Under the pieces are notes generated by a model that was not told the origin of the DNA, made no database searches, and worked only from the letters and a program-made list of their open reading frames with translations. DNA of 64,000 nucleotides. Origin: Shigella phage ESh16. Location: sequence record ON528726. One strand, given 5' to 3'. Shown here piece after piece: positions 5,714 through 53,623 of the stretch. Both the position numbers and the translations under genes were made by a program. Positions within the stretch are counted from its first letter, which is position 1. Every line of letters starts with the position of its first letter.

Positions 5714-8700
5714 TTATTCAACCCATTCAAATTTAACCGTTTTATTCACTGGGTCAGGAATAATGCGAACATTACCAATTCGTAAGAAATCACGAATAGT
5801 AAGATTCCCCATTATAGCATTATCAGATGGTAAAGCACCGATATCAGATGGCTGAGGAGGGTTACCTCCATCAAATACCTGAACAAAACTTGACCAAGAG
5901 TTTTTGGTTTTCTGCCATGTACGCGTCCAGCGAGTGGTACGTGCTTCTGGAGTCGTTGGATAAGTAATCCAATCTTGGTAAAGTGAATCGAGTGTGTTAC
6001 CAAACTGAGTCAATGTACCAGGAGATTTAACCTCTTCGCCACGTTCTAAGTATGGAAGCCCAGTCACTTCATTAGTTTTTTCAACCATTTCAAAATAACC
6101 CGGGAACTGGTTATAAGTAGCTGAATCATTAATGTCAATTGACCAGAATCCTACAGTATCAGATGTCGGCACACGGGTATATAAGTCAGATGTTTTAGTG
6201 CCCTGAGAACGAATTCTCGAGTTAACAGTTAAACCGCCTGAATTTATAGTAGCACCTTTGGCAATGATTAAGCTTTCACCAATCGTTACTTGACCAGATG
6301 CATTATTAATAGTTAATGGACGTAATCCATTAAATCCACCAGTCTGATCGCCCGATGCAGTAAGCATAAAATTCGTTACTGACCCGTCATTGCGAACAAT
6401 AAAACCATAATTTCCGTTAATAGCACGGAAAGCATTTGCGCTTCGAGAAATAATTTCACCACTTGCAGTGACTGAATTACCAAATGTTGCTACACCATTT
6501 GCATTCAATGTTCCTAAAGCATTCACATTTATTGGCATTACAGTACCATTAATGCTAAATGCTATATTACCATCTTTATCGCGTTGAGAATAAAAGTGAT
6601 AAGATGTTTCATCACTAACTTCAAATACGGTAGAACGTGTTGTGTTTGATTCCCCACTAAATTGATTCCCCCACACGCTGACTGTCATCGTTTGAGCCGG
6701 GTTCGTTCCAGTTTGAGATCCTTTCTCAAAAATCAGACGAGTTGCTGTTCCATCAGTATTAGAAATAGTTAGTGTACTATTTGCCGAAACTGATCCACCA
6801 AACGTAGCAGTACTAGATGATACAAGAGGGGCACTCAGATTCGTTTGTTGAGTTAAGGTTAGTGAACCATTAACCGTCTGCGCAATATCCCTACGAATGA
6901 ACTGGGATGAATCTAGACCATCCAATAAATTCGTGTCAGCAGCTTTTGCCTTTAACGGCAAATAATTTGCTAATACACGGTTTAATTCATATGGCGATAC
7001 TGCATAGCTATTTTTCTCGTACAAGTCTAATGACTGCGTTGAACCAACTGTATCATTACCAACGAATGTAATTGAACCAGATGAAGTTTTAACAAAACCT
7101 CTTACCAAAGTAGTTGCTGCCCAAGTAGGTTCGCTCTGCACAATCCATTTTAAATTTTTTGGAGATACAGCAGTATTTGCTGACGTTCCAGCTACAGTTT
7201 CAGATTGAGTTGCAACTTTAATAACGCCTTCTTGCGCTTCAGTAGATTTAGTACCTAAAAGCTTTTTAGGAGTTATTAGAACATTATCTAATGTTCCTGC
7301 AGCAGCTTCAACTTGTGTAGCCACACGAAGTGTACCACGCTGTGTCTCATTTGCTTCAAGAATATTAAGGGTATAATGGTCCCAGAGAGTTCCTGATTCA
7401 ACTAATCCAGATAGAGCAACAACAGAAGTACGATCAGTACTATTAAATCTGGTTTTAATTTTTAATGGTGTAGAGATACGAGTATCGTCGACGCCTGCGT
7501 CGAATTCAACTTGCGTAGCAATTTCAGCTATACCACTTAAACTTTCAGTTGCTTTACGGTCATTTAAAGTTTTAGGAGTGACTGCGCGAGTATAATCAGT
7601 TCCTGTATTAACTTCGCTTTGCGTAGCAATTTCAATTAAACCAATTCTTCCATCAGTTGATGTCTTTTTATGTAACGTTTCTGGAGTTACAACCGCATTT
7701 GCCCATCCTTCTTGGCTTTGTCCAGCAATTACTTCACTTTCAACTGCTAAAATTACTGCGCCTTGTTGTGTTGGAGTAGCTTTATACTGATCCAGAGCTT
7801 TAGGCGAAACAACTAAATTATTAGTGTTTTTATTGTAAACATTTGTACCATTTAATTCACGACTAGAGGCTGGAGTAGCTCCTGCGGTAGATACAAAGGT
7901 TACAATACCAGATAATGATTCAGAACCCTGACGAGCTTGAAGCTTTTTAGGAGTGATGATCGTAGTATCATCAGTACCTGTATTAGTTTCTTGTTGCGTA
8001 GCAATTTCAGCAACACCTCTACGAGTTTCTGTAGCAGTTCTTTCATTCAGCTTTTTAGGAGTGATGATAATATCGTCAGCAAAAGAGAATGTAGTATCCT
8101 GATTCACTTGGGCGGTAGTTGCTATTCTTGCGATACCTCTACGAGTTTCTGTAGCAGTACGGTTAGCTAACGTTTCTGGAGTAATTGCCAATTCTTTTTG
8201 TGGAGAATTTTCTAAATCAGCATTAGCTTGAGCTTGTGTAGCTAAAGCAATTACGCCTAATCTTGCTCTAGTAGAATCATTTAAAGAATCTACTCTTTCT
8301 ACGGTTGGAACGTTTTGCTGTACAACCCAATATTTTCCATCAGAATCTTCTATATAAGCAAGCTCCAAAACTGGAACATAATTAGTTTCACCGTTAAAAA
8401 CTAATTCTTGAACTGTTACCCATTCAGCTTCAGGTGGATATTCTGAACGTTTTGGGAATTGCAGCAATTGAACTGAAGAAGCAATTTTATCTTCACCGGC
8501 AGCTTTGATTTTAACTGTTTGGCCTTTTCTCATGTAATTCATGGAAATTTTAACAGTATCGCCAATGGAAATATCGGTCGGAAGCTGAAGTTCAATTGTT
8601 TGAGTTGTTCCATTATTCGCACCAAATACCATAACTTCTTCGTTTGGACGAATATTAGAATTAGTTGTTATAACACGTAAACGTGCTTTACTATCCCCGT

Positions 8701-12932: not shown

Positions 12933-12962
12933 GTTTACATGTCACAAGGACTGTGGTACTAT
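12933..12962 (+). promoter_or_regulatory. T4 early-type promoter (GTTTACA -35, TACTAT -10)
   Basis: gtttacatgtcacaaggactgtggtactat with about 17 nt spacing. Confidence 0.5.
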
Positions 12963-13277: not shown

Positions 13278-13643
13278 ATGTATATTGGCAAAAAGTATGA
13301 GCTTGTTCCAAGACTTATTGATACATTTATTAGTTATCGCCCACGTTCTAATTCATCAATAGTTAAAATTATTCAAGAAAATGGCGGATGGTTTGAAGTT
13401 AAAGAAGCTTTCTTTGCCGATGGATTTAGAGTAATAAAACACATTGAATGCGCAAATGGAAAGCATTTTTACTTTAACGTTTGCGAAGATGAATTTCATT
13501 GTTTCCGTGAATATAAAGAACCGACTTCTGAAGAAGATGAAGTCAAAGACAAGGTTTCTGGTGTAACAAAAATTCATTGCATTGTTGACGAAAACAATGT
13601 AGACGAAATCATTGAACTTTTGCGAAAAACTTTCAAAAAGTAG
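13278..13643 (+). CDS. Hypothetical protein (121 aa), frd.x-family position
   Basis: ORF track; GAGGAAACC RBS. Confidence 0.6.
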   Translation: MYIGKKYELVPRLIDTFISYRPRSNSSIVKIIQENGGWFEVKEAFFADGFRVIKHIECANGKHFYFNVCEDEFHCFREYKEPTSEEDEVKDKVSGVTKIHCIVDENNVDEIIELLRKTFKK

Positions 13644-13673
13644 TTTACAGGTAGGGTAGTAGTGTGATACTAT
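13643..13673 (+). promoter_or_regulatory. Early promoter overlapping a stem-loop (PeSL-like)
   Basis: gtttacaggtagggtag...gatactattaccctat: -35 GTTTACA, -10 TACTAT, inverted repeat TAGGGTA/TACCCTA. Confidence 0.5.
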
Positions 13674-13698
13674 TACCCTATCAACTAAGGAGAATAAA

Positions 13699-13941
13699 AT
13701 GAGATTACAACGCCAGAGTATTAAAGATTCAGAAGTTAGAGGTAAATGGTATTTTAATATCATCGGTAAAAATTCTGAACTTGTTGAAAAAGCTGAACGT
13801 CTTTTGCGTGATATGGGATGGGAAGATGAATGTGATGGATGCCCTCTTTATGAGGATGGAGAAAGCGCAGGATTCTGGATTTACCATTCTGATGTTGAAC
13901 AGTTTAAAGTTGATTGGAAAATTGTGAAAAAGTCTGTTTAA
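13699..13941 (+). CDS. Hypothetical protein (80 aa)
   Basis: ORF track; AAGGAG RBS. Confidence 0.6.
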   Translation: MRLQRQSIKDSEVRGKWYFNIIGKNSELVEKAERLLRDMGWEDECDGCPLYEDGESAGFWIYHSDVEQFKVDWKIVKKSV

Positions 13942-20135: not shown

Positions 20136-21723
<1,588 letters not shown>

Positions 21724-21726
21724 GCT

Positions 21727-21781
21727 GTTTACAAGTCCCTCGCGTTGTGTTACAGTAGTCTTACTGACATAACATGAGGAC
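21727..21781 (+). promoter_or_regulatory. Early promoter plus stem-loop cassette (PeSL-like), copy A
   Basis: gtttacaagtccctcgcgttgtgttacagtagtcttactgacataacatgagga; near-identical copy at 37178-37232. Confidence 0.55.
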
Positions 21782-21787
21782 TTTATG

Positions 21788-22291
21788 ATGGATTTGCAGC
21801 TTATTACTACTGAGATGGTCGTTGAAGCATACGGTGATACTACAGATGGGATTTCTGTATTTAAAGGAAATCGTCGAGTTGGATATATCACCGATCTTAA
21901 GAAAGATTTAGCTAAGCAAGTCAAGCGGAAAACGACCATTAAAGAATATCGAAATCGTCGTCTTGAGCAAGCCCGTGATATGCTTCCTGATGCAGTTGAG
22001 GAGATGAAAGTATTTTTAGAAAATCAGCTTGCGAAATATGATTGTGATGTGTTCATTAATCAGACTCAACCTAATGTTCATATTAACAACTGTAAATGCT
22101 ATATCATCGTTAATCCTTTGACGGGAAAACATCGTCTTGGAATTAGTAATCCAAATCGTAGCGCATCGGATATGGCAGAAGATGTTGAGGCATGCTTTAA
22201 AATTTCTAAATCTCCTGCTGAACATCATATTTTAATTAACGGTCTTTCTCAAGACGATATTATAGAGGTTATTAAAACTTTATGCAATTAA
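21788..22291 (+). CDS. alc: Alc, inhibitor of host transcription on C-containing DNA (167 aa)
   Basis: Size and position downstream of rnlA as in T4. Confidence 0.8.
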   Translation: MDLQLITTEMVVEAYGDTTDGISVFKGNRRVGYITDLKKDLAKQVKRKTTIKEYRNRRLEQARDMLPDAVEEMKVFLENQLAKYDCDVFINQTQPNVHINNCKCYIIVNPLTGKHRLGISNPNRSASDMAEDVEACFKISKSPAEHHILINGLSQDDIIEVIKTLCN

Positions 22292-22635
22292 GTAATACGA
22301 CAACAGGCTTGTTATTAATTGTAATTGCATTGGGCGGAACTTCTTTAATTTTAAAAAATAAAATTGAAAGATTAGAAACGTCTGTTGTAGAAATTACAAA
22401 AACGGCCAATGAAAACGCTTTAGCATTAAATAATTTGCGAATTCAGTATAATTATATTGATGCGATGAATAATAAAAATCGTGAGGCAATTGCTGCTATT
22501 GAGCGTGAAAATGAAAAACTGCGCAAAGACGCAAAGAAGGCGGATGTGGTGGCTCATAAGCCAGGATTGGTTGAAAAACAAATCAACAACTCCTTCAACA
22601 AGTTCGCAGAAGACATCCAGGACCTTTCTAAATGA
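22282..22635 (+). CDS. Hypothetical membrane-anchored coiled-coil protein (117 aa)
   Basis: N-terminal hydrophobic segment GLLLIVIALGGTSLIL; ORF track. Confidence 0.55.
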   Translation: MQLSNTTTGLLLIVIALGGTSLILKNKIERLETSVVEITKTANENALALNNLRIQYNYIDAMNNKNREAIAAIERENEKLRKDAKKADVVAHKPGLVEKQINNSFNKFAEDIQDLSK

Positions 22636-22931
22636 TTAGACTATCAGCAGTAATATTATCTATTGGTCTTCTAGTTGGTTGTTCGACAAAGCCTCTAGAA
22701 GTAAAGAAAGAAACAGTTCATCCTAATTGGCCAGTACAAATAAAGTCATATGATGAAGCTAAACTATCCTGGCAAGTTAAAGTTATTGATGGTAAAGCTT
22801 GGGTCGGTATGCCATTTGAAGATTCTCAGGAATTTCGTATTTGGCTTAATGATGTAAAACGATATGTACATGATCAGAAAACTATGATATGTTATTATCG
22901 CCAAGAGTTAAAAGAGGATAAATGCAAATGA
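22632..22931 (+). CDS. Putative lipoprotein (99 aa)
   Basis: Signal peptide with lipobox LLVGCS. Confidence 0.55.
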   Translation: MIRLSAVILSIGLLVGCSTKPLEVKKETVHPNWPVQIKSYDEAKLSWQVKVIDGKAWVGMPFEDSQEFRIWLNDVKRYVHDQKTMICYYRQELKEDKCK

Positions 22932-23152
22932 TTTCATGGCATCAATTTGAACATCTCAAAGGATTGATTTATGAATCCGAGATGGCTGCAATGATTTACG
23001 GACGCCAGATTCAGCGGTTAGAATCTTTACCTCCAACTAATGATGTTTTATTAGCTCAATCTCGTGCTAATCTTAAAAATGAATACCAAAATAAGTGGGG
23101 TAAAGCATCTAAAGACCTGCATGATTATATTCAATCATTGGTTGAGAAATAA
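22922..23152 (+). CDS. Hypothetical protein (76 aa)
   Basis: ORF track; translationally coupled to neighbours. Confidence 0.5.
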   Translation: MQMISWHQFEHLKGLIYESEMAAMIYGRQIQRLESLPPTNDVLLAQSRANLKNEYQNKWGKASKDLHDYIQSLVEK

Positions 23153-25051: not shown

Positions 25052-25081
25052 GTTTACTTTATGGTAGAGTTGTGATATTAT
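25052..25081 (+). promoter_or_regulatory. Early promoter with overlapping stem-loop (PeSL-like)
   Basis: gtttactttatggtagagttgtgatattatagctctacc: -35 GTTTACT, -10 TATTAT, inverted repeat GGTAGAG/CTCTACC. Confidence 0.5.
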
Positions 25082-25111
25082 AGCTCTACCAAAACAAATG
25101 AGGAAAACAAA

Positions 25112-25348
25112 ATGCTAAGTGAAAAACCAATTACTGTTAAAGAATTCCAAGAAAAAGTTAAACTATTTGCTCAGGAATTGGTAAATAAGGTTTCTGAACG
25201 ATTTCCAGAAACATCGGTTCGTGTTATTACCGAAACTCCTCGTTCAGTATTAGTAATTGTGAATCCAGGTGATGGTGACCAAATAACACATCTCAAATTG
25301 GATTTTGATGGATTAGTTGAAGCACAAAGGGTGTATGGCGTACTATGA
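25112..25348 (+). CDS. Hypothetical protein (78 aa), cd.2-like position
   Basis: GAGGAAAA RBS. Confidence 0.55.
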   Translation: MLSEKPITVKEFQEKVKLFAQELVNKVSERFPETSVRVITETPRSVLVIVNPGDGDQITHLKLDFDGLVEAQRVYGVL

Positions 25349-28220: not shown

Positions 28221-28250
28221 GTTTACAGCATGGTTCCTTTGTGATAGTAT
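28221..28250 (+). promoter_or_regulatory. Early promoter
   Basis: gtttacagcatggttcctttgtgatagtat: -35 GTTTACA, -10 TAGTAT. Confidence 0.5.
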
Positions 28251-28277
28251 TATCTTACACAAACAAAGGAGAATAAA

Positions 28278-28610
28278 ATGAAAACGATTAATCTGAACGC
28301 TGCAGTTAAAACTAAATGCTTCAACGGTAAATATGATGAAACTATGTGGTTCTTAATGGCAGTTGAAGGTGATATTATTGAAGTAGAAACAACAGAAGGT
28401 ATGGGAACAGATTTCACCTTTACAATTCAAGTTCATAATTTCTTTACTGGTTGGATTTATGAATTGAACACAGTAATCGTTGGAAAAATTGAACAAAATG
28501 AATTGGGTGAATGGTATTATGTTACAGCTCGCCAACGCGCCGAACGCTTAATTGAGAAGATGAAAAAAGTTGGTAAACTTGACATGCAGCACTGGAAAGT
28601 AGTAAAATAA
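28278..28610 (+). CDS. Hypothetical protein (110 aa), 30.8-like position
   Basis: AAGGAG RBS. Confidence 0.55.
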   Translation: MKTINLNAAVKTKCFNGKYDETMWFLMAVEGDIIEVETTEGMGTDFTFTIQVHNFFTGWIYELNTVIVGKIEQNELGEWYYVTARQRAERLIEKMKKVGKLDMQHWKVVK

Positions 28611-28612
28611 TT

Positions 28613-28641
28613 GTTTACTTTGGTACAGGATATGATATTAT
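28613..28641 (+). promoter_or_regulatory. Early promoter with stem-loop (PeSL-like)
   Basis: gtttactttggtacaggatatgatattatatacctgtacc: inverted repeat GGTACAGG/CCTGTACC across the -10. Confidence 0.5.
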
Positions 28642-28678
28642 ATACCTGTACCGCAATTAAACATCTCGGAGAATAAAA

Positions 28679-33000: not shown

Positions 33001-33023
33001 GAATAAACACTAGAGAGGATATG

Positions 33024-35117
33024 ATGGAACTCATTACAGAATTATTTGACGAAGATACTACTCTTCCGATTACAAACTTAAATCCAAAGAAGAAAATACC
33101 GCAAATTTTTTCAGTTCATGTTGATGACGCAATTGAACAACCAGGCTTTCGTTTATGTACTTATACATCTGGAGGTGATACTAATCGCGATTTAAAGATG
33201 GGCGATAAAATGATGCATATTGTTCCTTTTACATTAACTGCCAAAGGTTCAATTGCTAAATTAAAAGGTCTCGGTCCAAGCCCAATTAATTACATCAATT
33301 CAGTTTTTACTGTTGCGATGCAGACGATGCGTCAGTATAAAATTGATGCCTGCATGCTCCGTATTCTTAAGTCTAAAACTGCTGGTCAAGCTCGTCAAAT
33401 TCAACTTATTGCTGATAGACTTATCCGTAGTCGTTCAGGTGGCAGATACGTCCTTCTTAAGGAACTCTGGGATTACGATAAAAAGTATGCATATATTCTT
33501 ATACATCGCAAAAATGTATCATTAGAAGACATTCCAGGAGTTCCTGAAATTAGTACCGAGCTCTTTACTAAAGTTGAATCGAAGGTCGGTGATGTTTATA
33601 TCAATAAAGATACCGGAGCTCAAGTAACTAAAAATGAGGCAATTGCAGCATCTATTGCACAAGAAAACGATAAACGTTCTGACCAAGCTGTAATCGTTAA
33701 AGTTAAAATTTCCCGTAGAGCAATTGCACAAAGTCAGTCATTGGAATCTTCTAGATTTGAAAGTGAATTATTCCAAAAGTATGAATCTACCGCAGCTAAT
33801 TTCAATAAACCTGCTACAGCTCCTTTAATTCCCGAAGCAGAAGAAATGAAGCTTGGAATTAATTCATTAGCTTCTAAAACTAAGGCAGCAAAAATTATTG
33901 CTGAAGGAACTGCAGATGAACTTCATTATGACTATAAATTCTTTCCAATGAGTGAGGTTGGTGAAGTTTCTGAAAAAATTAAAGATGTAATTCTTAATGC
34001 GATTAAAAATGAACCAACTACTTCAATAAAATGTTTAGAAAAATACGCAGCAGCTGTTAATCAACTCTTTGAAGAATATAAAGATAAATGGCTTGATAAA
34101 CATAATAAAACCCGTAAAGGACAGCCAGATGAAGTCTGGGAAGAAATAACTAAAAATTCCTGGAACGCAGCAAAAACTAAATTCCTCAAACGAATGATTT
34201 ATAGCTTTTCTGGAATTGGTGCAGGTCCAATGATTGATATTACTATTGCCCGTGATGGTTCTAAATATACTCCATCACAAAAGCGCGGCATTAGAGAGTA
34301 TTGTGGTTCAGGATATACTGACATCAATAATCTTCTTTTAGGTCGCTACAATCCAGAACGATATGAGGTAATGAGTGAAAAAGAAATTGAATCTGCTATA
34401 AATAACTTAGATTCAGCTTTTGAAAATGGTGATCGTATACCAGAAGGCATTACAGTTTATCGTGCTCAAAGTATGACTGCTCCTATATACGAAGCACTAG
34501 TTAAAAATAAAGTGTTCTATTTCAGAAATTTTGTATCTACTTCTTTAACTCCTATCATTTTTGGACGTTTTGGAATTACACATGCTGGTATTGGTCTTTT
34601 AGAACCAGAAGCTCGTAATGAATTGACAGTTGATAAAAATGAAGAAGGAATAACTATTAATCCAAATGAAATAAGAGCGTATAAAGAAAATCCTGAATAC
34701 GTTAAAGTTCAAATAGGATGGGCAATTGATGGAGCTCATAAAGTTAATGTTGTATATCCAGGAAGTCTCGGAATAGCAACAGAAGCTGAAGTTATTCTAC
34801 CACGCGGATTGATGGTCAAAGTTAATAAAATAACTGATGCTTCTAATAACGACGGAACAACATCTAATAATACAAAACTCATTCAAGCTGAAGTTATGAC
34901 TACAGAAGAACTCACCGAATCAGTAATTTATGACGGTGACCGTCTAATGGAAACCGGTGAAGTAGTTGCAATGACAGGTGATATTGAAATAGAAGACAGA
35001 GTTGACTTTGCATCATTTGTTTCATCAAATGTTAAACAAAAAGTAGAATCATCTCTTGGAATTATTGCGTCTTGCATAGATATTACAAACATGCCTTACA
35101 AGTTCGTTCAAGGATAA
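33024..35117 (+). CDS. alt: Alt-like ADP-ribosyltransferase, copy 1 (697 aa)
   Basis: N-terminus MELITELFD; C-terminal ART motifs YRAQ (Arg), FVSTSL (STS), EAEVILPRG (Glu). Confidence 0.85.
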   Translation: MELITELFDEDTTLPITNLNPKKKIPQIFSVHVDDAIEQPGFRLCTYTSGGDTNRDLKMGDKMMHIVPFTLTAKGSIAKLKGLGPSPINYINSVFTVAMQTMRQYKIDACMLRILKSKTAGQARQIQLIADRLIRSRSGGRYVLLKELWDYDKKYAYILIHRKNVSLEDIPGVPEISTELFTKVESKVGDVYINKDTGAQVTKNEAIAASIAQENDKRSDQAVIVKVKISRRAIAQSQSLESSRFESELFQKYESTAANFNKPATAPLIPEAEEMKLGINSLASKTKAAKIIAEGTADELHYDYKFFPMSEVGEVSEKIKDVILNAIKNEPTTSIKCLEKYAAAVNQLFEEYKDKWLDKHNKTRKGQPDEVWEEITKNSWNAAKTKFLKRMIYSFSGIGAGPMIDITIARDGSKYTPSQKRGIREYCGSGYTDINNLLLGRYNPERYEVMSEKEIESAINNLDSAFENGDRIPEGITVYRAQSMTAPIYEALVKNKVFYFRNFVSTSLTPIIFGRFGITHAGIGLLEPEARNELTVDKNEEGITINPNEIRAYKENPEYVKVQIGWAIDGAHKVNVVYPGSLGIATEAEVILPRGLMVKVNKITDASNNDGTTSNNTKLIQAEVMTTEELTESVIYDGDRLMETGEVVAMTGDIEIEDRVDFASFVSSNVKQKVESSLGIIASCIDITNMPYKFVQG

Positions 35118-35120
35118 ATC

Positions 35121-37178
35121 ATGGAACTTATTACAGAATTATTTGACGGCGCTTCGGCGCCGGTTATTAACTTAAATCCTAAGCATAAAATACCTCAAAT
35201 TTTTGCTATTCAAGCCGGTGAAGAAAGCGTGCTTCCTGGATTTAGATTTTGTACATACACCTCTGGCGGTGATACAAATAAAAACGTTAAGCCAGGCGAT
35301 AAAATGATGCATATCGTAATGATAGGTGTTAATGAGAAACTATCATTAGTTAAACTTAAAAACTTGGGTGGAAATCCAATTGGTGTCATTAATGCTGTTT
35401 TTGATACTGCTCTTCAAACAATGAAACAGTATAAAATTGATGCATGCTTATTCCGCGTACTAAAAAGTAAAACAAATGGCGCTGCTCGTCAAATGCAAGT
35501 TATTGCTGACCGTTTAGTACGTACTAAAGGAGCAGGTCGATATGTTCTTTTAAAGGAAATCTGGGATTACGATAAAAAGTATGCATATATTATGGTTTAC
35601 CGTAAAAATGCCAATTTAGAAGACATTCCAGGTGTACCTCCTATTTCAACTGAGTTATTCACAAAAGTTGAATCAAAGGTTGGTGATGTTTATGTAGATG
35701 TCAAAACAGGTAATGCTGTTCCTAAAGCTGTTGCTGTTGCTGCTTCTATTGCTTTAGAAAATGATAAGCGCACGGATCAAGCTGTTATTCAGAAAACTAA
35801 AATTAGTCGTCGATTAGCAGCACAAGCTCAATATTCTACTGTCGATGCTTCACTCCAGGGCGATAGCTTCGCTGCTAAGAAATATCAAGAGTTTGAATCT
35901 AAAGTTCCGGTATATAAAGCAGAAGGACCAATGAACTCTGGCGTTATTCAGATTGGTTCAAACTTCGGCAAAGGAGCTATCGGTGGTATGAGAAGTGCTT
36001 CTCGTTTTAAATCTAACGATTATGAACTAGAAAGCTTCCGAAATCATATTGCATTGGCCCATGCACGTTTACGTGATCCGTCTATCAGACTGCAGAGCGA
36101 TATAACACATCAAGGTTCTCAAGAATATTTAAAGAATAAAGAATTCTTTGATTATAAAACCGATAAAATTTTGAGCGATCTCGCTGACATTAATATTTCT
36201 AATAGCTTTGATGTTATTAAGAAAATTATCAATGATTTAGTTAAAGGTTCTAAAGCCACACCAGACGAAAAGGTAGCTATTATTCAATTTGTCATGAATG
36301 GCATTTATAAATTGATTAATGAATCTGCTGCTCAGGCATATGAATACGCAAGCACCGAAGTAACTCCAAAAGGACTGACTCAGGCTGAGTCTGATGTAAT
36401 TGAAGATTATTGTGCAGATTCATATGTTGAAATGAACTCGTTCCTTTTAGGTAAACCAGATTCTACCCGTGAAGAATACATGGAACGAGCTATTAAACAC
36501 ATCGAGACGCTGGATTCTGCATTCGCCAAAGGATCAGTTCTTCCTCCAGGAACTACGCTTTATCGTGGACAAGAAGTTACTTTTAAAACTTTACGCCATA
36601 ATATTGAAAATAAAATGTTCTATTTCAAGAACTTCGTATCAACATCGCTTAAACCAAATATCTTCGGTGAGCATGGTAAAAACTATATGGCTCTAGATGA
36701 TTCCGGCGCAGTATTTTCTGGTGAAGGAGAAGGTTCTGTTGATGCTGAAGATTTAATGCATATGGGCAGTCATTCTGCTTATGCGAATGAAGATGCTGAA
36801 ACTAGCGTAGGTATGGTAATTAAAGGGGCTGAGCGAATCAAAGTTATCGTTCCAGGTCATTTATCAGGATTTCCATCAGAAGCTGAAGTTATTCTACCGC
36901 GTGGAATTTTGCTGAAGATTAATAAAGTAAGCACGTACATGATGAAAGAAACTGCTTATAACAAGTATCTAATCGAAGGCACAATCGTTCCTCCTTCTGA
37001 ACAATTAGAAGAATCGGTATATGATGGCGATCATCTAATGGAAACTGGTGAAGTTCGTCCAATGGCTGGGTTTAATCAATTCCTTATAGAAGAATCAAAA
37101 GAAGAGGAAAACGAAGTTTCTCAAATCTTGGCTTCTTTGGTTAACATCAACGGAATGTCTAAAAAGTTCAAGATGTAG
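35121..37178 (+). CDS. Alt-like ADP-ribosyltransferase paralog, copy 2 (685 aa)
   Basis: Same N-terminal about 230 aa architecture and C-terminal YRGQ / FVSTSL / EAEVILPRG motifs; central region divergent. Confidence 0.8.
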   Translation: MELITELFDGASAPVINLNPKHKIPQIFAIQAGEESVLPGFRFCTYTSGGDTNKNVKPGDKMMHIVMIGVNEKLSLVKLKNLGGNPIGVINAVFDTALQTMKQYKIDACLFRVLKSKTNGAARQMQVIADRLVRTKGAGRYVLLKEIWDYDKKYAYIMVYRKNANLEDIPGVPPISTELFTKVESKVGDVYVDVKTGNAVPKAVAVAASIALENDKRTDQAVIQKTKISRRLAAQAQYSTVDASLQGDSFAAKKYQEFESKVPVYKAEGPMNSGVIQIGSNFGKGAIGGMRSASRFKSNDYELESFRNHIALAHARLRDPSIRLQSDITHQGSQEYLKNKEFFDYKTDKILSDLADINISNSFDVIKKIINDLVKGSKATPDEKVAIIQFVMNGIYKLINESAAQAYEYASTEVTPKGLTQAESDVIEDYCADSYVEMNSFLLGKPDSTREEYMERAIKHIETLDSAFAKGSVLPPGTTLYRGQEVTFKTLRHNIENKMFYFKNFVSTSLKPNIFGEHGKNYMALDDSGAVFSGEGEGSVDAEDLMHMGSHSAYANEDAETSVGMVIKGAERIKVIVPGHLSGFPSEAEVILPRGILLKINKVSTYMMKETAYNKYLIEGTIVPPSEQLEESVYDGDHLMETGEVRPMAGFNQFLIEESKEEENEVSQILASLVNINGMSKKFKM

Positions 37179-37232
37179 TTTACAAGTCCCTCGTGTTGTG
37201 TTATAGTAGTCTTACTGACATAACATGAGGAA
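37178..37232 (+). promoter_or_regulatory. Early promoter plus stem-loop cassette (PeSL-like), copy B
   Basis: gtttacaagtccctcgtgttgtgttatagtagtcttactgacataacatgagga; 2 mismatches to copy A at 21727. Confidence 0.55.
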
Positions 37233-37238
37233 CACAAA

Positions 37239-37529
37239 ATGAAATCTTCTTTACGCTTTTTAGGTCAAGAACTTGTAGTTGAAGGCGTTATTCCTGCTGA
37301 TAACGCTTTTAATGAAGCAGTTTATGATGAATTTATCAAAATTTTTGGAACAGATAAAAAGTTCGGAATTTTTCCTTCTGAAAATTTTTCAAAGCCAGAA
37401 CAGACTGAAAGCATTTTCCAAGGTGTAGTAACAGGTAAATTTGAGTCAGAAGCTCCGGTAAAAATTGAAGTTTATATTGAAGACAGTTTAGTTGCTTCAG
37501 TTGCTGCTTTTATTTCATTCCGTAAATAA
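37239..37529 (+). CDS. Hypothetical protein (96 aa)
   Basis: ORF track; preceded by PeSL copy B. Confidence 0.5.
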   Translation: MKSSLRFLGQELVVEGVIPADNAFNEAVYDEFIKIFGTDKKFGIFPSENFSKPEQTESIFQGVVTGKFESEAPVKIEVYIEDSLVASVAAFISFRK

Positions 37530-37534
37530 AAATA

Positions 37535-37556
37535 TGGGGACCGAAAGGTCCCCATT
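37535..37556. terminator. Bidirectional terminator hairpin between convergent ORF 37239 and gene 54
   Basis: atggggaccgaaaggtccccat. Confidence 0.6.
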
Positions 37557-48951: not shown

Positions 48952-50658
48952 ATGGCTTTTACAGTTGATATAACTCCTAAAACACCTACTGGAGTTATAG
49001 ATCAGACTCAGCAGTTTACTGCTACACCCAGTGGTCAAACTGGAGATGGACCTATTACATATGCTTGGACTGTAGACGACGCTCCACAGGAAGAAACGTC
49101 AGCAACTTTTAGTTATGTACTAAAAGGACCTGCCGGTCAAAAGACTATTAAAGTAGTTGCAACCAATCAAGTTGCAGAATCTGAACCTGAAACAGCAGAA
49201 ATTAGTACAACTATCACAGTTCAAAATAAGACACAAACAACTACTTTAGCTGTAACTCCTGGTAGCCCTGATGCTGGAGTGATTGGAACTCCAATTGAAT
49301 TTACCGCTGCCTTAGCTTCACAGCCATCAGGTGCAAACGCTACGTATCAATGGCACGTTGACGGTTCTCCTGTAGACGAAGCAACTTCTGCTACATTCAA
49401 TTACACTCCTGCCACAAGCGGAGTTAAAAAAATCAAGTGTATAGCTCAAGTAACCGCGACTGATTACGATACATTGAGCGTTACTTCTAATGAAGTGTCA
49501 CTGACTGTTAATAAAAAGACGCAGACGACTACCTTGGCAGTAACTCCTGATAGTCCTCCAGCTGGAGTGATTGGAACAGCCGTTGAATTTACTGCTGCCT
49601 TAGCTTCTCAACCTGATGGGGCATCTGCTACGTATCAGTGGTATGTAGATGATTCTCAAATTGGTGAAGCGACTTCTGCTACATTTAGCTATACTCCAAC
49701 TACAAGTGGAGTAAAAAGAATTAAATGCGTAGCGCAAGTAACAGCAACAGATTATGACGCAAAAACAGTTACTTCTAATGAAGTATCATTAACAGTTAAT
49801 AAGAAGACACAGACAACTACGTTAGCCGTAACTCCTGCTAATCCTGCTGCCGGAGTAATTGGAACCCCAGTTCAATTTACTGCTGCCTTGGCTTCACAGC
49901 CACCAGGAGCGTCTGCTACGTATCAGTGGTATGTTGACGGTTCTCTGGTCGATGGAGAAACTACTACTACATTTAACTATACTCCTACCACAGTTGGAGC
50001 TAAAACAGTTAAGTGTGTAGCGCAAGTAACTGCAGAAAATTACAATGAAAAGGAAGTTACTTCTAATGAAGTATCATTGACAGTTAATAAGAAAACAATG
50101 AATCCACAGGTTACATTGACTCCTCCTTCTATTAACGTTCAGCAAGATGCTTCGGCTACATTTACGGCTAATGTTACGGATGCTCCAGAAGAAGCACAAA
50201 TCGAATACTCATGGAAGAAAGATTCTTCTCCTGTAGAAGGGTCAACTAATGTATACACCGTTGATACATCATCTATTGGAAGTCAAACTATTGAAGTTAC
50301 TGCAACTGTTACCGCTACTGATTATGATAGCAAAACTATCACAGCAGAAGGCCAAGTTCAGGTAACTGATAAAGTTGCTCCAGAACCAGAAGGTGAATTG
50401 CCTTATGTTCATCCTCTTCCACATCGTACTTCAGCTTATATCTGGTGCGGTTGGTGGGTTATGGATGAAATCCAAAAAATGACTGAAGAAGGTAAAGATT
50501 GGAAAACTGAAGATCCAGATAGTAAATACTATCTGCATCGTTACACTCTTCAGAAGATGATGAAAGACTATCCAGAAGTTGATGTTCAAGAATCACGCAA
50601 TGGATACATCATTCATAAAACTGCTTTAGAAACTGGTATCATCTATACCTATCCATAA
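48952..50658 (+). CDS. hoc: Hoc, highly immunogenic outer capsid protein, expanded form (568 aa) with five Ig-like domains plus capsid-binding C-terminal domain
   Basis: Tandem 96-aa Ig-like repeats (KTQTTTLAVTP...VTSNEVSLTVNK); C-terminal Trp-rich domain; position. Confidence 0.88.
   Translation: MAFTVDITPKTPTGVIDQTQQFTATPSGQTGDGPITYAWTVDDAPQEETSATFSYVLKGPAGQKTIKVVATNQVAESEPETAEISTTITVQNKTQTTTLAVTPGSPDAGVIGTPIEFTAALASQPSGANATYQWHVDGSPVDEATSATFNYTPATSGVKKIKCIAQVTATDYDTLSVTSNEVSLTVNKKTQTTTLAVTPDSPPAGVIGTAVEFTAALASQPDGASATYQWYVDDSQIGEATSATFSYTPTTSGVKRIKCVAQVTATDYDAKTVTSNEVSLTVNKKTQTTTLAVTPANPAAGVIGTPVQFTAALASQPPGASATYQWYVDGSLVDGETTTTFNYTPTTVGAKTVKCVAQVTAENYNEKEVTSNEVSLTVNKKTMNPQVTLTPPSINVQQDASATFTANVTDAPEEAQIEYSWKKDSSPVEGSTNVYTVDTSSIGSQTIEVTATVTATDYDSKTITAEGQVQVTDKVAPEPEGELPYVHPLPHRTSAYIWCGWWVMDEIQKMTEEGKDWKTEDPDSKYYLHRYTLQKMMKDYPEVDVQESRNGYIIHKTALETGIIYTYP
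49228..50091 (+). repeat. Three tandem near-identical 288-bp direct repeats inside hoc (one Ig-like domain each)
   Basis: Unit boundaries at 49228, 49516, 49804, 50092 by codon counting; units nearly identical at DNA level. Confidence 0.85.
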
Positions 50659-52246: not shown

Positions 52247-52268
52247 AAAGGGACCGAAAGGTCCCTTT
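52247..52268. terminator. Bidirectional terminator between convergent rnlB and gene 24
   Basis: aaagggaccgaaaggtcccttt flanked by A-run and T-run. Confidence 0.65.
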
Positions 52269-53607: not shown

Positions 53608-53623
53608 GGGACCCGAAGGTCCC
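53608..53623 (-). terminator. Terminator hairpin after gene 23 (CUUCGG loop on minus strand)
   Basis: gggacccgaaggtccc with T-rich tract following on minus strand. Confidence 0.6.

Follow-up and report, generated by a model that had tools for sequence, protein, structure and literature searches.

In bacteriophage T4, translation of e (lysozyme), soc, 49 and I-TevI is controlled by hairpins that sequester the ribosome-binding site (RBS) and carry an internal promoter (Uzan & Miller, 2010, PMC3014915). In these genes the Shine-Dalgarno (SD) sequence or the AUG is held in the 3' arm of a stable helix, and the transcript of the internal promoter starts between the arms and lacks the 5' arm; the long read-through RNA is silent and the promoter-proximal RNA is active. 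The internal promoter is a late (gp55) promoter, which delays translation until late. T4-type phages also carry cassettes known as promoter early stem-loop (PeSL) elements (Arbiol, 2010, PMC2839356; Comeau, 2014, PMC4122927). These are intergenic composites of an upstream stop, a strong early promoter, a stem-loop over the -10, an SD and a start codon; they are repeated in the genome and recombine with each other, their stem-loops have been read as terminators or attenuators, and they are described as indel hot spots in hyperplastic regions. Here, a 64,000-nucleotide stretch of the genome of Shigella phage ESh16 (ON528726; referred to throughout as the window) was analysed, in which a 54-bp cassette occurs twice, upstream of alc (inhibitor of host transcription) and upstream of alt.-3 (conserved protein, function unknown). 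The balance tips slightly towards reading it as a PeSL-like early promoter cassette that acts as a translation gate, tying translation to the promoter from which the mRNA originates.

As predicted here, the cassette resembles the e, soc, 49 and I-TevI hairpins in holding its SD in the 3' arm of a stable helix and in placing a putative transcription start between the arms, so that RNA from its own promoter would lack the 5' arm; a silent read-through RNA and an active promoter-proximal RNA are proposed for it in the same way. It differs in that its promoter is of the sigma-70 early type, in that the anti-SD sequence lies in the spacer between -35 and -10, and in its predicted effect, which is to end translation at the shut-off of early promoters. 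The late-promoter motif TATAAATA (gp55) is absent from the cassette; because the promoter is early and lacks this motif, the cassette would work like that family without being one of its described members. The structured translation initiation regions (TIRs) in the 2010 review are those of e, soc, 49 and I-TevI only (PMC3014915), alc and alt.-3 not being among them; the hairpin may already be noted in older T4 literature. A literature search returned no relevant description of an anti-SD in an early promoter, nor names for these two promoters. In mobE of Aeromonas phage Aeh1, as far as its mention in the review goes (Gibb & Edgell, 2009, cited in PMC3014915), an intramolecular helix likewise hides the RBS of a gene placed within a longer transcription unit of a T4-like phage; by the same account that hairpin belongs to another gene and phage, is not formed from a promoter spacer and is not part of a repeated cassette. 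What appears to be new is thus the use of an early promoter with the opposite temporal outcome, whereas the underlying logic would be that already known from e, soc, 49 and I-TevI.

The original prediction had likened the cassette to published PeSL modules, and it does fit their loose description (PMC2839356, PMC4122927): it is an intergenic composite of the same parts, repeated in the genome. The PST/T4 PeSL promoter consensus TTTACW-N17-TAYWAT is nearly matched by TTTACA-N17-TATAGT or TACAGT (TATAAT in some genomes), and shared two-site variants suggest that the two copies, like those of PeSL elements, may recombine with each other. Unlike PeSL elements, the pair sits at two stable syntenic junctions, is not followed by a T-run, and forms a helix that specifically holds the SD.

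The 54-mer of copy 1 (GTTTACAAGTCCCTCGCGTTGTGTTACAGTAGTCTTACTGACATAACATGAGGA) was matched by copy 2 with two mismatches, at cassette positions 17 and 27 and both C/T, and both copies lie on the same strand (Table 1); shuffles of the window gave zero matches. The pair with two differing positions (52 of 54 nt identical) is therefore as originally described, and its start coordinates hold; the ends given at the time (21781 and 37232) overshoot by one base, as the copies already part at base 55 (C vs A). Identity ends on the left at the G of GTTTAC and on the right at the last A of GAGGA. Since the borders fall at these points, the repeated unit comprises promoter, 5' leader and SD; the upstream A-rich region and the start codon are excluded. 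The first G of copy 2 is also the last base of the TAG stop codon of the upstream gene. Ordinary T4 early promoters share a consensus only, and the other six GTTTAC promoters of the window show 30-52% identity when compared with the cassette across 54 nt.

In a blastn search, the 54-mer was matched at 997 places in 499 phage records, roughly twice per genome and always with at least 90% identity; judged by name and identity the records are essentially all Tequatrovirus-like, and no third cassette locus was present among the ~499 two-copy records. Because both loci carry copies across a genus of ~499 sequenced genomes, the pair is not recent. The T4 alc copy equals window copy 2 exactly, and the T4 alt.-3 copy is one base off (G40 to A). 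The minus strand of the T4 reference corresponds to the + strand of the window. Over 20500-23000 the sequence matches Shigella phage ESh34 at 100% identity and ~500 T4-like Tequatrovirus phages at 95-99%. Genes were assigned from the list of open reading frames (ORFs) and the annotation of T4 and relatives; the alc product shares 97-100% identity with Alc proteins annotated in T4-like phages.

Promoter elements were called by a consensus scan (sigma-70/T4 early consensus), and the GTTTACA -35, the -10 and the GAGGA RBS before an ATG that had been noted earlier were recovered in each copy. In the numbering used for T4 early promoters, GTTTAC occupies -36 to -31 and T-12, A-11 and T-7 are conserved (Nolan, 2006, PMC1524935); GTTTAC at these positions is a feature of the UP/-35/TGn/-10 class to which T4 early promoters belong (Hinton, 2010, PMC2988021; Nolan, 2006, PMC1524935). 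Both copies have GTTTAC at -36 to -31, a 17-nt spacer and a TG-extended -10 of the form TAnnnT, and share with T4 early promoters the GT-rich stretch and TG before the -10 as well as T-12, A-11 and T-7. The bases at -44 to -40 are ACTAA in copy 1 and AAGAT in copy 2, and longer A/T runs lie outside the repeat (-76 to -56 in copy 1, -55 to -48 in copy 2). Transcription is predicted to start at cassette position 37 (A 21763; A 37214), within the 3' arm of the hairpin described below. The equivalent T4 positions are 136,300 and 123,057 on the minus strand. The distance from GAGGA to the start codon is 4 or 7 nt at alc, which has two ATGs, and 7 nt at alt.-3. The T4 GenBank and RefSeq records carry no annotated promoter features at either site. 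The ATG of the ATGAGGA motif (21774-21788, 37225-37242) opens an ORF of 4 or 5 codons, MRTL or MRNTK followed by a stop, whose TGA overlaps the start codon of alc or alt.-3, respectively; these mini-ORFs may be a coincidence or a re-initiation device.

When the RNA was folded, the sense strand of the whole cassette gave a single hairpin of 18-22 bp that spans cassette positions 7-57 and includes the SD (copy 1, -21.7 kcal/mol, z score -4.1, or -4.3 in a second run; copy 2, -23.0 kcal/mol, z score -4.4). In copy 2, positions 12-25 (CCCUCGUGUUGUGU) pair without a break to positions 40-53 (GACAUAACAUGAGG), giving 14 bp with three G.U pairs, and the helix is capped by a 4-bp apical stem (28-31 with 36-39) and a 4-nt loop. 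The promoter spacer (CCCTCGTGTTGTGT) thereby pairs with the leader and SD, GAGGA (positions 50-54) being predicted to lie inside the helix, opposite CCCTC of the spacer. The inverted repeat reported in the original prediction (TGTTACAGTA/TACTG..TAACA) is real but was understated, as it represents one register of this longer, SD-containing hairpin. The antisense RNA folds 4-6 kcal/mol more weakly than the sense RNA, a difference for which the three G.U pairs are responsible, and single-stranded DNA folds weakly on both strands (-6 to -10 kcal/mol). No T-run follows the hairpin at either copy (copy 2 continues with ACACAAAA), and a terminator scan called neither site. A search of Rfam 15 gave no match at the gathering score anywhere in the window, nor any at E <= 1 within 21650-21850.

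The 5' arm (positions 7-31, spacer and -10) lies wholly upstream of the predicted start. RNA beginning at position 36 was essentially unstructured (-4.8 kcal/mol for copy 1 and -2.2 kcal/mol for copy 2, z scores of ~0 to -1). The cost of exposing the SD was 6.2 kcal/mol at alc and 11.3 kcal/mol at alt.-3 in read-through RNA, vs 0.5 and 1.6 kcal/mol in RNA from the predicted start. The description of the unit as a module of promoter, stem-loop and RBS stands; what it had missed is that the SD is predicted to be hidden on read-through RNA and free on RNA from the cassette promoter.

Table 1. Positions in the window of the two cassette copies, their called or predicted elements and the adjoining genes.
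Feature	Position	Strand	Details and basis
Cassette copy 1, 54 bp, rnlA-alc intergenic	21727..21780	+	Orthologous copy in T4 between rnlA and alc
Early promoter of copy 1	21728..21756	+	-35 TTTACA 21728-21733, 17-nt spacer, TG 21748-21749, -10 TACAGT 21751-21756
Predicted hairpin, copy 1, 5' arm	21733..21757	+	Anti-SD CCCTC 21737-21741 in promoter spacer; upstream of predicted start
Predicted hairpin, copy 1, 3' arm	21762..21783	+	Corresponds to alc mRNA 5' leader; SD GAGGA 21776-21780
Cassette copy 2, 54 bp, second alt paralog/alt.-3 intergenic	37178..37231	+	Orthologous T4 copy upstream of alt.-3
Early promoter of copy 2	37179..37207	+	-35 TTTACA 37179-37184, 17-nt spacer, TG, -10 TATAGT 37202-37207
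Predicted hairpin, copy 2	37186..37233	+	5' arm 37186-37208, loop 37209-37212, 3' arm 37213-37233, SD GAGGA 37227-37231
rnlA (RNA ligase 1), upstream of copy 1	20599..21723	+	Start inferred from 1125-nt T4 rnlA; stop codon ends 3 nt before copy 1; transcripts would read into copy 1
alc (inhibitor of host transcription), behind copy 1	21788..22291	+	ORF list; alternative ATG at 21785
Second full-length alt paralog (Alt-like ADP-ribosyltransferase)	35121..37178	+	ORF list; annotation in related phages; transcripts would read into copy 2
alt.-3 (conserved protein, function unknown), behind copy 2	37239..37529	+	ORF list; T4 annotation

The rnlA-alc junction was compared in 12 lineages, mostly represented by one genome each; genomes were sampled from INPHARED, scans of IMG/VR with Alc and Alt.-3 having given only 6 and 5 loci. 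The same architecture with a different helix sequence was found at alc in eight of the 12, namely Tequatrovirus, six other named genera and the unclassified phage LQ5. In each of the latter seven, GTTTACA is followed by a spacer segment of 8-14 bp that is perfectly complementary to the alc SD, and in all eight the 5' arm comes directly after GTTTACA and the -10 box falls in the loop region. The spacer segments forming the 5' arm and the SD segments forming the 3' arm are, respectively, CCCTCGTGTTGTGT and GACATAACATGAGG in Tequatrovirus, TCTCCATTTGGTT and AACCAAATGGAGA in Karamvirus, TCCTCATTTCGTT and AACGAAATGAGGA in Winklervirus, TCCTCATCAG and CTGATGAGGA in Jiaodavirus, AACCTCTCATTTT and AAAATGAGAGGTT in Bragavirus, ATCTCCGTTT and AAACGGAGAT in Gelderlandvirus, TTTCTCCA and TGGAGAAA in Roskildevirus, and TCTCCTCAT and ATGAGGAGA in LQ5. 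As a MAFFT alignment of the eight alc leaders was out of helix register, every spacer was scored against every TIR and a permutation test was applied instead. Cognate spacer/TIR duplexes had a mean of -13.9 kcal/mol vs -7.8 for non-cognate ones, the cognate mean was equalled by none of 20,000 label permutations, and the cognate TIR ranked first of 12 in seven of the eight helix-bearing lineages. The promoter spacer and its own RBS co-vary across genera. Within the gate reading, it is quite possible, if short of probable, that the anti-SD device as such has been conserved with compensatory changes in at least eight sampled lineages, covering seven named genera of the Straboviridae.

The alc leader of RB69 (ACAACACGAGG; positions 13515-13582 of locus L015) is perfectly Watson-Crick complementary to the Tequatrovirus spacer (CCTCGTGTTGT, 21737-21750; duplex -20.6 kcal/mol), and the spacer of RB69 itself is unrelated to that of Tequatrovirus. 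Because the leader matches the T4-type spacer perfectly, it seems that the 3' arm was retained in RB69 and the 5' arm lost; the leader appears to be left over from a perfect ancestral helix, the 5' arm of which was replaced in Mosigvirus. In Tequatrovirus, C-to-U drift in the leader appears to have given rise to the G.U pairs.

Six genera (Dhakavirus, Marfavirus, Karamvirus, Mosigvirus, Gelderlandvirus and Gaprivervirus) have a conserved alt.-3 promoter with a short hairpin within the spacer only and a free SD; in Kanagawavirus 305 the alt.-3 spacer pairs with the beginning of the coding region. As many lineages have the anti-SD design at alc but few have it at alt.-3, the simplest history would be that the design is ancestral at alc and that the alc cassette, as a whole 54-bp unit, overwrote the alt.-3 promoter in the ancestor of Tequatrovirus. 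The short spacer hairpin has a loop containing GGA (CCAC-ATGGAT-GTGG, GCAC-AAGGAA-GTGC, CACA-AGGAC-TGTG) and was seen between -35 and -10 at 12933-12962 of the window, at the alt.-3 promoters of the six genera, where it is kept with compensatory stem changes, and at the alc promoter of RB69 and NHEP10. It resembles the binding consensus of CsrA, RUACARGGAUGU.

Exchange between the two loci was analysed in 15 genomes with both copies, a sample chosen partly for divergent cassettes and to that extent biased. No fixed difference separates alc from alt.-3 cassettes. Cassettes of the two loci differ at 2.5 positions within a genome and 2.9 between genomes, and this paralog divergence equals that between orthologs (2.5 for alc vs alc, 2.9 for alt.-3 vs alt.-3). 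Five derived states were seen at both loci, as were three two-site combinations: A29+A32 (both copies of ZCEC15 and the alt.-3 copy of four other genomes), A32+A34 (both copies of MLP2) and T11+A16 (the alc copy of CJY920 and the alt.-3 copy of three other genomes). In three genomes the copies are identical, two of these having derived double variants. The shared variants suggest ectopic gene conversion between the copies, which would be kept alike by occasional conversion and by selection. T4 recombination is said to need roughly 50 bp of homology, a figure attributed to Singer and colleagues in 1982, and the 54-bp repeat fits this requirement. No crossover product between the copies was seen in the 15 genomes. 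Genes 30 (ligase), 31 and others located between the copies are essential in T4; a deletion between the copies should therefore be lethal, and only non-crossover exchanges would be expected to survive, since a crossover would delete these genes.

The suggestion that the pair mediates deletion, duplication or modular shuffling was not supported, as neither such an event nor a break in synteny was found at the cassettes. In the same 15 genomes the orders rnlA-cassette-alc and alt paralog-cassette-alt.-3 are always kept with conserved flanks and no breakpoint coincides with a cassette, and copy number is constant at two in the ~499 records. The distance between the copies, 15.4 kb here, ranges from 14.0 to 16.1 kb across genomes and varies only through indels elsewhere. 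The only rearrangement nearby is a 1.69-kb deletion in the second alt paralog of T4, which lacks the equivalent of window 35469-37158. Its junction corresponds to a 9-bp direct repeat, CTAAAAAGT, found here at 35460-35468 and 37159-37167. On the right-hand side the repeat stops 10 nt short of the cassette, and the deleted block 19 nt short of it. A PeSL-mediated origin of the T4 alt.-1/alt.-2 deletion was considered and rejected, the junction being this repeat outside the cassette. The second alt paralog is degraded to alt.-1 and alt.-2 in T4, which, given the short-homology deletion at the 9-bp repeats, are remnants of the full-length gene. The sole change of gene content at the rnlA-alc junction among the lineages sampled is in Gaprivervirus PSD2001 (L016, 17866-18183), where rnlA and alc are separated by an extra ORF of 78 codons that carries the annotation 'inhibitor of host transcription'; alc of this phage has no promoter of its own directly upstream, and its upstream region gives no clear reading.

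The original prediction had also proposed scanning for other units of GTTTAC plus stem-loop. Eight GTTTAC promoters were found on the + strand of the window, five of which (13643, 21727, 25052, 28613 and 37178) have hairpins with z scores of -4.2 or below that straddle the -10; three such units thus exist besides the pair. Among random 64-nt windows from the region, equal stability was reached by only 0.7%. The five hairpin-bearing promoters are PeSL cassettes in the sense of Arbiol (2010) and Comeau (2014). At promoter 28221-28284 a 9-bp pairing of the spacer (TTCCTTTGT) with its own SD (ACAAAGGAG) was found, with a z score of only -1.8. The helix reaches the SD only in the alc/alt.-3 cassette and, more weakly, at promoter 28221.

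Under the gate reading, RNA polymerase starting at the cassette would produce a short, unstructured leader with a free SD, and alc or alt.-3 would be translated. The 17-nt spacer would not be transcribed from its own promoter; it carries the anti-SD complementary to leader and SD. RNA reading through from upstream would contain both arms and form the hairpin of -22 to -23 kcal/mol, burying the SD, so that the downstream gene would be translated poorly or not at all. Early in infection, host RNA polymerase at the cassette would make translatable alc and alt.-3 mRNA; later, with early promoters off, RNA would still cross the cassettes with the SD hidden. Such read-through could come at alc from the middle promoters PnrdA, PnrdB and PI-TevIII, and at alt.-3 from alt transcripts. 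If it occurs in the amounts we infer, synthesis of Alc and Alt.-3 would be confined to the few minutes of early promoter firing, and this confinement would be the purpose of the device.

The terminator scan found no terminator-like site between the upstream gene and the cassette at either locus, and PnrdA, PnrdB and PI-TevIII, which have been mapped as middle promoters in T4, are oriented towards alc (Hinton, 2010, Table 1, PMC2988021). Time-resolved omics data for T4 place alc and alt.-3 in the early class for both RNA and protein, rnlA in early RNA and late protein, denA and alt in middle RNA and late protein, and alt.-1/-2 in middle RNA (PMC9697503 supplement). The timing of alc and alt.-3 relative to their upstream neighbours is consistent with a gate, and stops short of proving one. 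A broader version of the proposal is put forward tentatively: that a portable, promoter-embedded anti-SD, transplantable by gene conversion, ends the synthesis of early proteins such as Alc at early-promoter shut-off despite middle and late read-through.

On a classical PeSL account, the stem-loop would terminate or attenuate upstream transcription, and the cassette would be mainly a recombination site for the shuffling of modules, the repeats serving as substrates for a 15.4-kb deletion or duplication. The strong early promoter, the stem-loop over the -10 and the borders of the unit (upstream stop at the 5' end, SD with ATG at the 3' end) all agree with it, as do the strong hairpins at five of the eight GTTTAC promoters, the extra ORF of PSD2001 and the exchange of sequence between the copies. 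Furthermore, in phi1/RB49 one PeSL stem-loop cut lacZ expression as much as rrnB T1 did, and circles were found between neighbouring PeSLs. That published reporter assay, however, cannot tell termination from a block to translation. An intrinsic terminator was rejected at the cassettes for want of a T-run, and the terminator scan was negative; gene content at the cassettes is unchanged in the 15 genomes, copy number is constant, and the nearby T4 deletion used the 9-bp repeat. A pure terminator would also leave unexplained why a co-varying alc SD forms the 3' arm in eight lineages. We consider this account unlikely. Phage RNase III sites, such as those of the T7 early region, are comparable in length to a bulged hairpin of 18-22 bp, and the hairpin could instead serve the upstream message, as a 3' stabiliser or as an RNase III or RNase E site splitting the rnlA or alt mRNA, with the involvement of the SD being secondary. 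It begins 7-11 nt past the upstream stop in every lineage examined, and similar hairpins at other early promoters of the window exclude the SD. A stabiliser could, however, be of any sequence, whereas the 3' arm includes the SD in eight lineages despite a changing helix; no Rfam match was obtained, and the review of T4 post-transcriptional control reports no processing site at the cassettes (PMC3014915). A role confined to the upstream message therefore seems improbable.

The two sites might also be nothing but promoter copies, arisen by recent duplication or gene conversion, with the hairpin incidental or forming a DNA cruciform with no role in RNA. Substitutions within the genus do not significantly avoid the helix, the -35, TG, -10 and SD already constrain many of the 54 positions, and single-stranded DNA of both strands can fold. 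Against this stand z scores of ~-4, set beside the 0.7% background of such stable 64-nt windows, the co-variation of spacer and TIR across genera, and the presence of the pair at both loci throughout the ~499-genome genus, which is hardly recent. The G.U pairs favour the sense RNA, and together with the weak DNA folds they make a cruciform unlikely. We give this explanation very little credence.

Several observations weigh against the gate reading and its proposed history. The design is not universal at alc: the SD is free in Mosigvirus (RB69 and NHEP10, with a small hairpin within the spacer only), in Kanagawavirus KLB31 (hairpin centred on the -10) and in Acinetobacter phage Ac42 (nothing obvious), and in Tulanevirus phiAS4 the spacer pairs with the start-codon region, not the SD. 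At alt.-3, an anti-TIR was found in just two of nine sampled lineages (Tequatrovirus and Kanagawavirus 305), so gating of alt.-3 may be a by-product of the copy event. The hairpins at 13643-13706, 25052-25115 and 28613-28676 are centred on the -10, with z scores of -4.2 to -5.5 and the SD outside; since this holds for three of the five strong hairpins, those at early promoters must have another role too. Selection within Tequatrovirus was assessed from the change in folding free energy (ddG) of observed vs all possible single substitutions. Substitutions did not significantly spare the hairpin (p = 0.03 at alc, 0.21 at alt.-3), nor was sparing significant when transitions alone were counted; because the test was weak or non-significant, no covariation within the genus is claimed. 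The alt.-3 copy of LF73P3 carries three changes that weaken the helix. The base of the helix might be opened in part by ribosomes that terminate at the upstream stop, which lies 0-3 nt before the cassette. The statistics for conversion are modest (hypergeometric p of 5e-4 for all changes vs 0.10 for variable positions only), and the test for greater likeness between copies from the same genome gave p = 0.058, in a sample biased to divergent cassettes.

Other repeats of the window were recorded alongside the cassette. Two full-length alt paralogs stand in tandem (33021-35117 and 35121-37178) with ~72-78% DNA identity in patches, and give rise to repeat families at a spacing of ~2.1 kb (D3, D5, D6, D9 and D15). 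The G+C-rich terminator hairpin GGGACCGAAAGGTCCC (family D4) occurs three times (37537-37552, 52250-52265 and 53608-53623), its first copy being a bidirectional terminator between alt.-3 and gene 54. Three tandem repeats of 288 nt (96 codons; 75-78% identity; family D1) at 49216-50091 are probably the immunoglobulin-like domains of hoc, going by their position relative to the DalCa annotation. A 68-nt motif in five dispersed copies (60-72% identity; family D2) at 7209-8185 is a candidate part of the proximal long tail fibre gene 34, on the minus strand, by its position in the GEP001 annotation.

The two copies offer a natural example of a 54-bp regulatory unit that appears to be kept uniform by ectopic gene conversion in a highly recombining genome. 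As a compact part combining a strong promoter with insulation from read-through translation, the cassette might find use in phage and synthetic biology. If the gate reading is true, at least some published PeSL elements would be translational gates, not terminators. A working gate would be the early-gene counterpart of the textbook mechanism of T4 late genes, in which translation is licensed by the proximal promoter only. It would help to explain why some early proteins stop being made despite upstream middle and late transcription through their genes, and would also offer a second account, at the post-transcriptional level, of why the synthesis of early proteins ends so abruptly.

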